Positions 24,993 through 36,411 of a stretch of 64,000 nt of DNA are shown one piece after another. This DNA comes from an uncultured Acidobacteriota bacterium. Lineage in GTDB: Bacteria > Acidobacteriota > Terriglobia > UBA7540. The notes beneath the pieces were generated by a model. The model made no database searches. It had not been told where the DNA came from and saw only the letters and a list, made by a program, of their open reading frames with translations. The stretch spans positions 192,001 through 256,000 of the forward strand of contig CAWDSK010000009.1 in NCBI GenBank assembly GCA_963804995.1, in the 5' to 3' direction. Numbering within the stretch: the first letter of the stretch is position 1; each line of letters starts with the position of its first letter. The translations under genes were made by a program, and so were the position numbers.

Positions 24993-28108
<3,116 letters not shown>

Positions 28109-28272
28109 ATAAATCTGCTCAGTGCATCAACAGAAATTATCGCCTTTACTTTACGACGCCACACTATTCAGAAGAAGCTGTCAGCCATTAGCTCTCAGCT
28201 TTCAGCTCTAGCGTGCGAACGCTTGAAGCTGATCGCTGATAGCTGAACGCTGATAGCTTCTTTCCAACAATT

Positions 28273-28390
28273 TTCCGGCGATCAAACCGGAGGGGTCACA
28301 CCCGTTCCCATCCCGAACACGGTAGTTAAGCCCTCCAGGGCCCATGGTACTGCGCGGGCGACTGCGTGGGAGAGTCGGTCGTCGCCGGGA
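28273..28390 (+). rRNA. rrf: 5S rRNA
   Basis: tccggcga...cacccgttcccatcccgaacacggtagttaag...gggagagtcggtcgtcgccggga. Confidence 0.98.
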
Positions 28391-32168: not shown

Positions 32169-32960
32169 ATGCGAAGCTTGCATATTGTCCTGTTATCGTT
32201 GTTGCTGGCGGCTGTACCCAGCGCGCTGGCGCAACACGGTGGCGGAGGCCATGGCGGCGGTGGAGGTGGCGGCCGGGGTGGCGGCGGCGGTGGCTTCCAT
32301 GGTGGCGGTGGTGGTGGCGGCTTCCATGGCGGAGGTGGTGGCGGCGGCTACCGTGGCGGTGGTGGTGGCGGCGGCTACCGTGGCGGTGGTGGCTATCGCG
32401 GTGGCGGCATTGGTCCCCGAGGTGGTAGCGGCCGCGGGGGATTTGGCTATGGAGGCCGCGGCTACGGTGGCTACGGCAGAGGCTACGGTTACCGGGGTCG
32501 TTACGGGTTCGGATTTGGCTTCGGCTTTGGAGGGTGGGGTTGGCCCTATTACAGCTATGGGTATCCGTATTACCCATACTACTCTTACGACCCGTGCTAT
32601 CCCTACGGCCCCTATGGCCCGTACGCCTGTGATCCCCACGCTTATGGCCCTTACGCGTATGCTCCCGACCCACCGGCGGCGTATTCCATCAATCCTCCGG
32701 CAGGGGGACCGGGGCCGGCAACTTATTCCCCCGATCCACCAGTAAGGCGCAACGCTCCTGCCACGGCGGATCCGACGGCGACGCGCAGCGCACCTGTGTC
32801 GGATGGCCAGTGGCACCACTTCGGCAATCAACCCGCTCCTCCGGCGCGGGCTGTGACACCCAGTACGCGGCCAGTTTCGCCCGGAACCGATCCACCTCCA
32901 ACGCGCAACGTTGCCTTGGCGGACGGCCAGTGGCACCACTTTGGGGGAGGCAGTAAGTAG
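32169..32960 (+). CDS. Secreted Gly/Tyr/Pro-rich protein
   Basis: RBS ggagg; signal peptide; GGGG and YP repeats; duplicated DGQWHHFG. Confidence 0.75.
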   Translation: MRSLHIVLLSLLLAAVPSALAQHGGGGHGGGGGGGRGGGGGGFHGGGGGGGFHGGGGGGGYRGGGGGGGYRGGGGYRGGGIGPRGGSGRGGFGYGGRGYGGYGRGYGYRGRYGFGFGFGFGGWGWPYYSYGYPYYPYYSYDPCYPYGPYGPYACDPHAYGPYAYAPDPPAAYSINPPAGGPGPATYSPDPPVRRNAPATADPTATRSAPVSDGQWHHFGNQPAPPARAVTPSTRPVSPGTDPPPTRNVALADGQWHHFGGGSK

Positions 32961-33244
32961 AGAGTAGAAAGCAGTAGGCAGAAAGCAGAAGGCGGAAGGC
33001 AGCGAGCGTTTTTTGCGAGTCCCGACGCGTGTATTTCCGTAGGGATGCTTGCCGATCAGACCGGGAAGCGCCCCTACTCCCCGCACATCCCTGCATTATC
33101 ATTCTTTCGACCCTGGCCACACACCTTTCTATCACCATCCTTTTTCTACGCGGTGGACTGAGAAAACGGAGGCAGGAACCGGAGGAATGTGGTACAAAAG
33201 TTGAGAGCAATTCCCAAGACAATTAACTCTGATGGAGGCGAGAC

Positions 33245-33655
33245 ATGGCGGGCGACATAACTCTGGAAGCCGCGGAGCGGATTGTAGCGGCGGCGAAGAA
33301 GAAGGCAGCGGAAATCAATACCAAAATGGACATCGCGGTCGTGGATGCGGGCGGAAATCTCAAGGTCTTTGCGCGCATGGACGGGGCATGGCTCGGCAGC
33401 ATCGACATCGCGCAGCGCAAGGCTCGCACCGCGCGCTGGTTTGACATGGATACGGGCATCATCGGTACGCTCTCGCAACCCGGCGGGCCGCTTTTCGGCA
33501 TCGAGCACTCGAATGGCGGGCTTATCACCTTCCCCGGCGGCGTGCCGCTTAAGAACGCGCAGGGCGAAGTGGTGGGAGCTATCGGGGTCAGTGGAAGTAC
33601 GGTTGAAAACGATCACACGGTGGCCGTAGCCGGCGCCGCCGCGCTTAACAAGTAA
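33245..33655 (+). CDS. GlcG/HbpS-family heme-binding protein
   Basis: [34 protein letters not shown]. Confidence 0.9.
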
Positions 33656-33798
33656 TGGCTGCATGATGGGGCCGGGCCAAGCGCCCGGCCTCTGCACTTC
33701 TCAAAGAGATTTCTCACCTGGGCCCAGCACCGCTCAGCAGCGCCGCAGAATTAAACCAATAGACAAAGCGCAAAATCCAAAGTTGCCAACGGCTGGCG

Positions 33799-35711
33799 GT
33801 TGCGGTAGGGATACCGGTTACCCGGTACCCCCCGCACGGATCCGTACGTGCGCTGGTTAGCGCATACGGCTCTTATCTCGGATGTGTGGCGGCGAACCGT
33901 TGGGATGGCCAAGGATGCACAACGTGCGGAGCAGGCAACCAGCAGGCCGCAAGCTTCCCCAGTCGGTCCCAGTTGAGGCGGTGGCGTTGACTGCGTTGAC
34001 GCAGTTGTGTTCGCCACAGTCGGGTCAACCGTTCCCGAAAGATTCGCAGGCGGTCGAGGTTTCCCGGTACCGCGTGATAGTTGAAGTAGCCTTGCACGAC
34101 CGACCGGAGCCATTTACCCGTATCCGCGATGGGATCGTGCCGACGCTGCCGGAGTTGTTGCTTGAGTTCCTGCAACTTCCCCCGCAGGCGCTTGCTGATC
34201 GTCTTCCGCTTCACGGTAAATTGCCCCCTCCGGTTCTTCCCGCTGATATGCGTGAAGCCCAGAAAGTCGAACGTCTCCGGCTTACCTTCTCCTCTCCGTT
34301 TCCGGTAAAGTTCGGCAAACGGCCCGAACTCGATCCGGCGCGTTTTGTCAGGATGCAGTTCCAATCCAAACTTCCCCACCCGCTCCCGGAAATCCTCCAG
34401 AAAGCGGTCGGCTTCCGTCTGCGATTGGAATCCAAGGACCGTATCGTCGGCATACCGCACCACGACCACGTCTCCCCGGGCGTGCTTCTTGCGCCACGCC
34501 TGCACCCACAGGTCAAAGACGTAGTGCAGATAGATATTCGCCAGCAGGGGCGAGACCACCGCCCCTTGTGGCGTACCCATCTCCGTCTCCGACCATTCGC
34601 CTTCCTCCCTCACCCCGGCTTTCAGCCATTTCTGGATGAGCCGGAGAATCCGGGGGTCGGCGACGCGATGCTGCACGAACTTGAGCATCCATTCGTGGGA
34701 TATCGAATCGAAAAATCCACGAATGTCCGCGTCAAGAACGTAGTTCACGTGCTTCACCGTGAGCGCGTACGAGAGCGCGTCCAGCGCTTGATGCTGGCTG
34801 CATCCCGGTCGAAAGCCATACGAGAAGCCCAGAAAGTCTTCCTCGTAAATCGCCTTGAGGATGGTGACCACGGCCTGTTGGACGATCTTGTCCTCCAGTG
34901 CCGCAACCCCCAACGGACGTTGCCGCCCGTCGCCTTTCGGGATATACGCCCTTCGCGAGGGCTTCGCTCGGAATGCTCCGCGGTGGACCCGGCTGTGCAG
35001 ATCGACGAGTCGACCTTCCAGCCCGCTTTCATACTCCTGCCACGTCATGCCGTCTACTCCCGGTGCAGCTTTTCGCTTCAAGGCGTAAAAGCTTTCCCGC
35101 AGCAGATCGACCGTTAAGTGGTGGAGCAAGGCCGTGAACTTCATCTCCCTGTGTTCCTTCGCGGCTTTCCGCACACCCGCGAGTCCCTGGGACACGCGTG
35201 CCCCGCTCTGTGTCGGGTGCGTGTTAGGCCAACGGGTGTTCTCCTTGATCAGCGGCCTTCCCTCCTCATTCTCCGCCAACGGCTTCCCGTCTTTGTTCAA
35301 ATGATTCATCGGTACTGTTCCGCTGTCCGACTCCTCGAGAGCGTGCAGGCGGGCTGTACGGCCATCGCCTTTTCCCGCCGTCCGGCCACGATCTACGGCG
35401 GCCGGCGCCTCCGAGGTCTCCCGGTTCTCGTGCAGAAAGTGTCTAGGCGTGTCTGGGGTCTACGACTACGCAGGACTGTGCCGGAACTCGCGTTGGCGTC
35501 CCGGCCTCATGTTGCCTTCCGTTTAGTCTGAAAACGTCGGCGTCCTGATTGGACATTTTCGAAGCTCAATACCCAGCCCACCTATTCCCCTGTTTACGCT
35601 TCACCGTGCGCCTCACGACGCCCAGCGCAAAACTCGGGGCCGAGTGGATCGCTACTCCTTCCTCGTGAGAAATTTTCATTCTCTGCTTTCTGCCGGTTTA
35701 TCCCGGCGCAC
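33799..35711 (-). mobile_element. Complete group II intron (IIB-like)
   Basis: 5' GTGCG at 35711; domain V gagccgtatgcgctaaccagcgcacgtacggatccgtgcggggg; domain VI ending ...ccctaccgcAAC at 33799; EBS1 cagact (35525-35530) pairs with IBS1 ggtctg. Confidence 0.93.
33873..35309 (-). CDS. ltrA: Group II intron reverse transcriptase/maturase without an endonuclease domain
   Basis: AAPGVDG, RPLGV, SYGFRPG, GTPQG..SPLLANIYL, RYADD, FDFLGF; no HNH domain. Confidence 0.95.
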   Translation of the reverse strand: MNHLNKDGKPLAENEEGRPLIKENTRWPNTHPTQSGARVSQGLAGVRKAAKEHREMKFTALLHHLTVDLLRESFYALKRKAAPGVDGMTWQEYESGLEGRLVDLHSRVHRGAFRAKPSRRAYIPKGDGRQRPLGVAALEDKIVQQAVVTILKAIYEEDFLGFSYGFRPGCSQHQALDALSYALTVKHVNYVLDADIRGFFDSISHEWMLKFVQHRVADPRILRLIQKWLKAGVREEGEWSETEMGTPQGAVVSPLLANIYLHYVFDLWVQAWRKKHARGDVVVVRYADDTVLGFQSQTEADRFLEDFRERVGKFGLELHPDKTRRIEFGPFAELYRKRRGEGKPETFDFLGFTHISGKNRRGQFTVKRKTISKRLRGKLQELKQQLRQRRHDPIADTGKWLRSVVQGYFNYHAVPGNLDRLRIFRERLTRLWRTQLRQRSQRHRLNWDRLGKLAACWLPAPHVVHPWPSQRFAATHPR

Positions 35712-36075
35712 CAGACCCCCGTTCTTTGGGGTCTGCGATGTCTCGCAGGGACACTCTCTTGGCCAGTGTTTGGAGCGTGTAGAGTCTTACCGTTCTGCAC
35801 GCGCATCTAACGCCCCCGACATGACCACTGGTTAGCCGCAACTCACGCCTGCCACTTCGGGGCATCGCAGACCCCAAAAACCGGGGGTCTGCGCCAGCCA
35901 AGCAAGGCGGAAATTCACGATGCTTCTTAGCCCTCTCCGAGGGGTCGCAGAATCCGCCGTGGCGGAAGAGGGTGGACCGCCGCGGCGTTTTCACCAGCCG
36001 GGACGGGACGGGTGAGGGGTCTCTTCGTCACCCGCTCGCTGCCTTCCGCTTTCTGCCTTCTGTTCTTATTGTGCC

Positions 36076-36279
36076 GCCAACGGCTGGCGCAGACCCCGGC
36101 CCTTTGGGGTCTGCGATGTCTCGCAGGGACACTCTCTTGGCCAGTGTTTGGAGCGTGTAGAGTCTTACCGTTCTGCACGCGCATCTAACGCCCCCGACAT
36201 GACCACTGGTTAGCCGCAACTCACGCCTGCCACTTCGGGGCATCGCAGACCCCAAAAACCGGGGGTCTGCGCCAGCCAA
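36076..36279. repeat. 204-bp REPIN/MITE-like element; intact twin of the intron-interrupted copy (33785-33798 + 35712-35901)
   Basis: ggctggcgcagacccc..ggggtctgcg ... cgcagacccc..ggggtctgcgccagcc; near-identical copies. Confidence 0.88.
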
Positions 36280-36411
36280 CGACATTTGCTGCCTATCCCG
36301 ACTAGTCGGGACTCGCAAAGAACGCTCGCTGCCTACTGCTTACTGCCTTCCGCTTTCTGCCTTCTGCCTTCTGACTTCTGACTCCTAACTTCTAACTCCT
36401 ACCTCCTGCCC

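Follow-up and report, generated by a model that had tools for sequence, protein, structure and literature searches.

The window analysed here is a stretch of 64,000 nucleotides from an uncultured Acidobacteriota bacterium (assembly GCA_963804995.1, contig CAWDSK010000009.1, positions 192,001 to 256,000). Its minus strand carries a group II intron that interrupts one of two neighbouring 204-bp doublets of a repetitive extragenic palindrome (REP), and about 40 copies of this intron occur in the genome, all in one intergenic REP family. The intron, its target and the exon- and intron-binding sites (EBS and IBS) through which they pair are located as follows, a slash marking a bond between two bases.

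33785 to 33798, no strand: left end of the interrupted 204-bp REP doublet, with a CTGG tag; the 3' exon reads CGCCAG on the minus strand
33799 to 35711, minus strand: group II intron of bacterial class E, GUGCG...AAC, 1913 nt
33799 to 33874, minus strand: domains V-VI (RF00029, 39.2 bits; gathering score 40, thus 0.8 under the cut-off)
33873 to 35309, minus strand: intron-encoded reverse transcriptase/maturase of 478 aa, with YADD at 286-289 and no endonuclease domain
35456 to 35676, minus strand: part of domain I (RF02005 group-II-D1D4-6, 173 bits)
35463, minus strand: EBS3, G (intron nt 249), pairing with the C at exon +1; Watson-Crick in 55/57 introns (four rows with misplaced 3' ends excluded)
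35525 to 35530, minus strand: EBS1, CAGACU (intron nt 182-187), pairing with exon -1 to -6, with covariation over 70 distinct homologous 5' ends
35551 to 35555, minus strand: EBS2, UGUCC (intron nt 157-161), pairing with exon -9 to -13 in the REP loop
35712 to 35717, minus strand: IBS1, GGTCTG, forming the stem's 3' arm in the REP on the non-tag strand
35720 to 35724, minus strand: IBS2, GAACG, in the REP loop, containing all three differences from the empty copy
35712 to 35901, no strand: remainder of the interrupted doublet, with an empty site at 35891/35892 (plus)
36076 to 36279, no strand: uninterrupted 204-bp REP doublet, REPIN-like, with empty sites at 36090/36089 (minus, eligible) and 36269/36270 (plus, disfavoured)

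The intron starts with GTGCG at 35711 and ends with AAC at 33799, displaying the 5' GUGYG and 3' AY ends of group II introns together with Rfam matches to domain I and domains V-VI and a reverse transcriptase (RT)/maturase with a YADD motif encoded in domain IV. The 478-aa protein matched TIGR04416 with 342.5 bits (cut-off 300), the only other match above threshold being PF00078. Neither an HNH-like pattern, sought in the C-terminal tail, nor a DNA-binding/endonuclease (D/En) region was found, and the absence of an endonuclease domain, claimed in an earlier interpretation made from the letters of this DNA (the sequence-only reading), was borne out by the RT domain being the sole Pfam match and by the tail. 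Excision in silico of 33799-35711 restored the predicted 204-bp element, with three mismatches to 36076-36279 (positions 23, 25 and 26). The proposed insertion at GGTCTG/CGCCAGCC was likewise confirmed, the junction lying at the foot of the 8-bp stem of the REP hairpin, as was the pairing of EBS1 (35530-35525) with IBS1 GGUCUG, which includes one G-U pair. The sequence-only reading had also placed the intron in a multicopy REPIN (two inverted REPs and a spacer in a single hairpin) with the empty allele next door. The 204-bp unit is indeed an inverted CTGG doublet that folds as one long hairpin (z -7.5; 0/200 shuffles equally good), and the REP arm is multicopy; the unit itself has only two close copies, its spacer giving one further, distant match at 74% in the genome. 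The neighbour at 36076-36279 is a local paralogue and not an allele, because this second copy sits at another position.

In the 7.55-Mb genome we counted 40 intron copies, 39 of them full-length with at least 99.6% identity and one truncated at a contig end, although a few of those at contig ends may be assembly duplicates. Thirty-seven are exactly 1913 nt long, each differing from the majority sequence by 0-6 bases, and the open reading frame is intact in 38 of the 39 full copies; such near-identity would fit a recent burst. All of the 38 readable 5' exons end with GTCYG at the stem foot of a REP hairpin, and all 37 full 3' exons begin with CGCYA, so that copies in unrelated targets, which would have contradicted the sequence-only reading, were not encountered among the genomic flanks. 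With the introns excised in silico, 35/637 hairpin-ended GGTCYG/C sites were occupied versus 2/2898 sites lacking a good stem; both of the latter are degenerate REPs, and the stem reaches 6 of 8 or better in every copy. The association with REPs is not due to chance.

On the opposite strand the target reads GTAG or CTGG, then CG, then the hairpin, an order that matches the architecture of GTAG-type REPs (PMC3733652). The genome contains 276 REP arms of usable type. By tag, 217 GTAG-type and 58 CTGG-type arms were counted, the window's subfamily bearing the CTGG tag, and 174 of the 196 scored arms lie outside the coding mask; a tag and a short palindrome in many extragenic copies are what characterizes REPs. 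About 14 CTGG doublets occur among 19 listed pairs, with other spacers, and 7 of these ~14 are occupied. Two NF047646 genes, encoding REP-associated tyrosine transposases (RAYTs), are flanked by target REPs (C5:58461 and C6:722534; 115.9 and 109.9 bits, cut-off 80), and at each of the two loci a neighbouring REP is interrupted by the intron; tagged REPs closely flank 3 of 14 Y1 genes in all. The sequence-only reading, which spoke of a parasite of a parasite, is supported in that the target REPs are linked to RAYTs. The family shares with GTAG-family REPs, REPINs and RAYTs (PMC3733652, PMC3116915) the tetranucleotide tag, an 8-10-bp stem, inverted doublets and NF047646 transposases flanked by repeats, but differs in the CTGG tag of the window subfamily and in that 184/275 arms lack an inverted partner within 300 bp. 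Another RAYT-like gene (C2:304854 in this genome, locus L010; also L196 in genome G026) is bordered by REPs of a third GTAG family (GTAGCGCAGAG...), with no copy of the intron there. Diverged class E intron ends (80-90% identity) with no close RT occur at non-REP sites of the same genome (C5:460087, C6:842676, C2:652257, C1:206552 and C9:36920-36979), and ten further RT matches at 31-37% identity belong to other groups.

The intron-encoded protein is 56.7% identical over 467 aa to the sole intron RT on plasmid R478 and 56.5% identical to a 504-aa RT on pBRH01, which was linked to its class E intron by organism and RT length. Judged by its length, the R478 RT is taken to be that of S.ma.I1. In a table of PMC4244168 S.ma.I1 is listed as class E, a class (IIE) whose definition includes the absence of a D/En region (PMC3552965) and whose RNA has alpha' at the end of a stem-loop in DId3 and a 5-nt domain V loop (PMC3753933). 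In a FastTree phylogeny, built without class D, F, g1-g6 or C plasmid references, the protein fell into a clade of 103 rows with two class E references (support 100), which also answers the RT classification suggested in the sequence-only reading. Solved class C, CL and ML proteins scored 118-144 bits, class C reaching 137-140 as against 552 bits for class E, the values coming from different programs. Class C (IIC) introns are without EBS2 and part of EBS1 (PMC3753933), whereas here a 6-nt EBS1 pairs with the stem arm and EBS2 is present; all three pairings of class E, EBS1, EBS2 and EBS3, could be recognized, EBS2 being the weakest. By sequence criteria the element is an endonuclease-less bacterial class E group II intron.

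Comparison of homologues provided evidence for these pairings. EBS1 (nt 182-187) pairs with exon positions -1 to -6 at 0.80-0.96 versus 0.27-0.42 expected, over 70 of 75 homologous 5' ends whose boundaries were in part chosen for the best EBS1 fit. A segment following a conserved CGAAAA, which in the present intron is the UGUCC of EBS2, covaries with exon -8 to -14 (permutation z 5.6-6.5, the related introns not being independent). A relative at 91-92% identity (genome G005, 6 loci) carries the altered EBS1 CGGACU and is located at correspondingly altered GGYCCG variants of REP-type targets. Within the genome, C at exon -10, in the REP loop, is retained in 37/38 sites, and the EBS2 score predicts occupancy over the 276 arms (p 6e-5). 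In a logistic model of the same arms, occupancy depended on the EBS2 score (p 9e-4), on a perfect EBS1 (p 4e-4) and on the strand (p 1e-5), but not on stem energy (p 0.21). Because the REP is a palindrome, GGTCYG/CG is present on both strands, yet arms opposite the tag were occupied in 36/276 cases and tag-strand arms in 0/468; the other arm of the palindrome is never used because of its low EBS2 score, which is at most 1 of 4 in 402 of these 468 arms.

Orientation relative to replication was assigned by four-fold-site skew for each contig, contig C2 being split at dnaA (123,925); raw GC skew was too noisy on contig C9, and four-fold-site skew together with dnaA was used instead. Thirty-nine of the 40 copies carry leading-strand sequence and are thus located in the lagging-strand template, and intron orientation reverses at dnaA on C2. 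Occupancy follows the same rule, with 35/132 leading-like REP arms filled versus 1/144 lagging-like arms. The relative at 53% identity in the complete genome G058 obeys it as well in 17 of 18 copies (dnaA at 1.80 Mb). The choice of site accords with EBS1, with EBS2 reading the REP loop, with EBS3 and with the replication strand. It is to be noted that 23S and 5S rRNA genes (24993-28390) lie on the plus strand, whereas four-fold skew marks the minus strand of C9 as leading-like; either this rRNA operon faces replication head-on, or the skew assignment is limited here.

We consider it probable that the copies, all at the same bond within REPs of a RAYT-associated family, spread by standard retrohoming through their guides on the lagging-strand template. 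The intron transcript, possibly a read-through product of the flanking short-chain dehydrogenase (SDR) gene, would be spliced with the help of the maturase, and the resulting ribonucleoprotein would base-pair through EBS1 with the REP arm, through EBS2 with the loop and through EBS3 with the +1 base, all on the exposed lagging-strand template. Reverse splicing would then take place at the bond that separates the stem from the complement of the tag, and the nascent strand would serve as primer for copying the inserted intron. A recent burst would have been possible because the guides, by coincidence, fit a sequence repeated hundreds of times between genes, presumably neutral as landing sites. 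Each insertion parts the tag from the hairpin and, given the REP architecture described in PMC3733652 and PMC3116915, would disable the REP for the RAYT. The landing site is unusual and the machinery familiar; the chemistry is likely ordinary.

Several observations weigh against this account. The strand calls rest on weak skew, raw skew giving 31/40 and local skew 35/40. The EBS1 covariation is inflated, because boundaries were partly chosen by best EBS1 fit; the EBS2 register shifts by one base between clades, its pairing is short and wobble-rich with 8/36 occupied arms scoring 2 or less, and one related intron (L046/L050) pairs poorly at EBS2. A spliced joint or intron-less allele (33798 joined to 35712) was not seen in contigs from eight public runs, each of which left at least one flank uncovered. 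Finally, guides and strand are insufficient: among 103 matching sites (leading-like, GGTCTG/C, EBS2 score of at least 2.5, C at -10), 22/39 REP arms were filled versus 0/64 others. The flanks of filled sites are nearly invariant at positions -10 and -6 to +5, with G at -8 in 35/38 and GCYA at +2 to +5 in 37/37, and the additional filter most likely consists of protein contacts to -8/-7 and to +2 to +5 (which are complementary to the REP tag), with selection against insertions in genes acting alongside. In the 103-site comparison hairpin, protein contacts and selection are nevertheless confounded, and the genome offers no more than 18 CGCYA sites without a stem, too few to separate the effects.

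The same comparison is an argument for a requirement for the folded REP stem-loop itself, as for class C introns at terminators or attC sites, the hairpin on the single-stranded template presenting IBS2 and being bound by the protein. None of the 64 non-REP sites with all guide matches on the right strand was filled, as against 22/39 REP arms; the stem never drops below 6 of 8 in any copy, IBS2 is a part of the loop, and several distant relatives are also found at the 3' foot of hairpins. We nevertheless judge such a requirement unlikely. Stem energy is no predictor of occupancy (logistic p 0.21, as above; rank test 0.99), IBS1 is the stem's own 3' arm and has to unpair, the near relatives L015 and L051 sit at stem-less sites with matching EBS1, and the majority of a clade at 73-78% identity has no hairpin. 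The IIC-like hairpin recognition implied by the sequence-only reading is not supported, stem strength having no predictive value and the intron being of class E with EBS1, EBS2 and EBS3.

Copies could also be mostly passengers, the intron-bearing REP having been moved by the RAYT, or the intron having been copied by recombination or gene conversion between REPs. Every copy is indeed flanked by REP homology, two pairs of occupied sites have near-identical upstream context, and the three differences between the 204-bp copies are clustered in one loop, as expected from conversion. We regard this explanation as very improbable, since the copies are distributed over two REP subfamilies with many loops and flanks that share nothing beyond the REP, since the 14-nt 3' side would be too short for efficient recombination, and since conversion would not yield the strand bias (35/132 vs 1/144) or the dependence on EBS2. 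Least credible of all, to the point of being nearly negligible, is broad insertion followed by purging of copies that land in genes, so that the REP pattern would mostly reflect survival: 552/680 stem-less guide-matching sites are in coding DNA, where selection could remove copies, but the 128 intergenic stem-less sites with an EBS2 score of at least 2 are every one empty, and the near-invariance of exon positions -10 and -6 to +5 also speaks against it.

Relatives of the intron use both REP and other targets. Intron matches were detected in 21/61 related genomes, and 79 relative loci were taken from the genome collection, of ~1100 estimated, nearly all in Acidobacteriota records. Besides the G005 intron described above, REP-type targets are used by a G026 intron (87-88%; 2/3 loci), by L084 (83%), by a second G005 intron (82-85%; 2-3 of 4 loci, on the tag strand) and by L049, L060 and L029 (57-61%, tag strand); the EBS1 of L049 and L060, CAGAGC, fits CAGAG-type hairpins. 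All 18 copies of the G058 intron (53%) follow a GGGAGCGCGGGCG hairpin, which occurs 589 times in exact form and lies around a Y1 gene. Non-REP targets are used by L017 and L062 (88%), by L083, L016, L082, L085, L086 and L100 (80-85%), by the majority of a clade of 56 rows (71-78%) and by the majority of the rows at 63-69%. As users of both kinds interleave in one 17-row clade, the target is labile, REP use having been gained or lost several times. The proposal of the sequence-only reading that a lineage is specialized on REPs thus stands at the tips of the tree; it fails further in, where relatives at 80-88% and 73-78% use non-hairpin sites and REP use reappears at 82-85%, 57-61% and 53%. Judged by these flanks and the tree, REP homing is a habit adopted repeatedly and not that of a single specialised lineage.

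Other features of the relatives were recorded. The 73-78% class E clade (L087-L160, for example L114, L128, L148, L119 and L160) inserts in a dispersed non-hairpin motif of ~26 bp (like GAGTGTAATNGCGATNTTTCGCCAA), which is entered from either strand at two different bonds and looks like a protein-binding or recombination site. In L046, L050, L084, L049, L060, L029 and L021 the apparent 5' end, judged by EBS1 register, is GAAAGCG, GTAAGCG or GATAGCG and not GTGCG, and most relatives with such an atypical 5' end are located at REP-like hairpins. L129 (1099-3012) has a second 5' end directly after its 3' end, as in tandem or nested intron copies, and L145 has a second, shorter intron copy 400 bp downstream.

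The class E introns S.ma.I1 (PMC4244168) and Cl.be.I2 (PMC3753933) share with the present intron a C-terminal LP..HPWP..RF...HPR tail, the lack of an endonuclease and EBS1/2/3, but here a single genome harbours ~40 copies, all of them inserted in intergenic REPs of one family. RmInt1 of Sinorhizobium meliloti (class D; PMC8914252, PMC1802570) also has no endonuclease, is EBS-guided, prefers the lagging-strand template and resides in a mobile element that is itself multicopy; its protein, however, is of another class and its target is an IS transposase gene (ISRm2011-2) instead of a 30-bp non-coding REP. Class C introns resemble the present intron in having a stem-loop next to the insertion site in non-coding DNA, with the insertion on its 3' side, many copies and a strand bias (PMC4424553, PMC8919778). 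REPs are known targets of insertion sequences (IS), namely ISPpu9, ISPpu10, ISPa11, ISPsy8 and IS1397, likewise at a fixed REP position (PMC1525189), and an IS481 copy is similarly found in REPINs of strain SBW25 (PMC11708052), but these elements employ DNA transposases or recombinases, whereas the present one is a retroelement. In the open-access literature searched, which leaves aside subscription papers, we found no report of intron homing into REPs and none of a REP target for class E introns; REPs appeared there only as IS targets and in a table line of PMC1525189, in which a group II intron of P. putida is REP-associated in 2/9 copies only.

The finding, which is real and well supported, is a new target for a known intron class. 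Reviews name three kinds of target for bacterial group II introns, namely terminators, attC and homing sites (PMC4424553). REPs can be added to these, given the ~40 copies described here and the independent 18/18 case in another REP family. We propose only tentatively, and hold it to be rather doubtful, that REPs and REPINs form a fourth natural class of group II targets, class E introns having repeatedly re-aimed their guides at RAYT-spread hairpins, reading the fold or the tag as well, riding REPs to high copy number and, by severing tag from hairpin, taking them from RAYT circulation. The 276 natural variant sites, filled and empty, record the target rules of class E introns in a form that can be read directly from the genome. 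EBS2 is described as dispensable for splicing and only suspected to be relevant to homing (PMC3753933), and the genome data provide in vivo support for its role in homing and for the use of the lagging-strand template by class E introns. The three-level parasite system of RAYT, REP and intron thereby becomes testable.

The surroundings of the two doublets comprise the following features.

33245 to 33655, plus strand: flanking gene for an HbpS-like haem-binding protein, converging on the repeats
35902 to 36075, no strand: unrelated abundant repeat separating both doublets, with 418 BLAST hits in the genome
36412 to 37161, minus strand: flanking SDR gene, oriented like the intron

Read-through from the SDR gene is a possible source of intron transcript. 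The three empty sites near the intron noted in the sequence-only reading do exist, all reading GGTCTG/CGCCAGCC within 560 bp of the intron 5' end, but only 36090/36089 is a good vacancy, 35891/35892 and 36269/36270 lying on the disfavoured strand with an EBS2 score of 1.5 each. Loop differences were rejected as the reason for the vacancy at 36090/36089, both 204-bp copies scoring 3.5 of 5 on EBS2 despite the differences in IBS2; because of these equal scores, and with 22/39 of the best sites filled, the vacancy is most simply due to chance. All three differences lie within four bases of one REP loop (35720-35723 vs 36098-36101), the other 200 bases being identical, which suggests loop conversion or a hypermutable loop. 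The two copies have differing outer flanks and lie 378 bp apart after excision, which would fit a local copy event. Each is bounded at both ends by GCCAA (33785-33789, 35897-35901, 36076-36080 and 36275-36279), where the flanks diverge; a RAYT target rule based on this motif was rejected, as it is absent from 12 other doublets examined.

No empty orthologue was found in 10 genus relatives with an hbpS-like gene: neither REP nor intron was present within 420 bp downstream, and the neighbours differ. Small shares of the region are contained in 20 public runs, and the contig sets of eight of these (4 DNA and 4 RNA) were compared with it; they show pieces of the intron and its relatives, the left flank being uncovered in all. 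Peat metagenome contigs also frequently contain the repeat at 35902-36075. Degenerate 7-mer tandem tracts (GCAGAAA type) at 32946-33026 and 36305-36406, in inverted orientation, bracket the block formed by hbpS, the intron and the REPIN.

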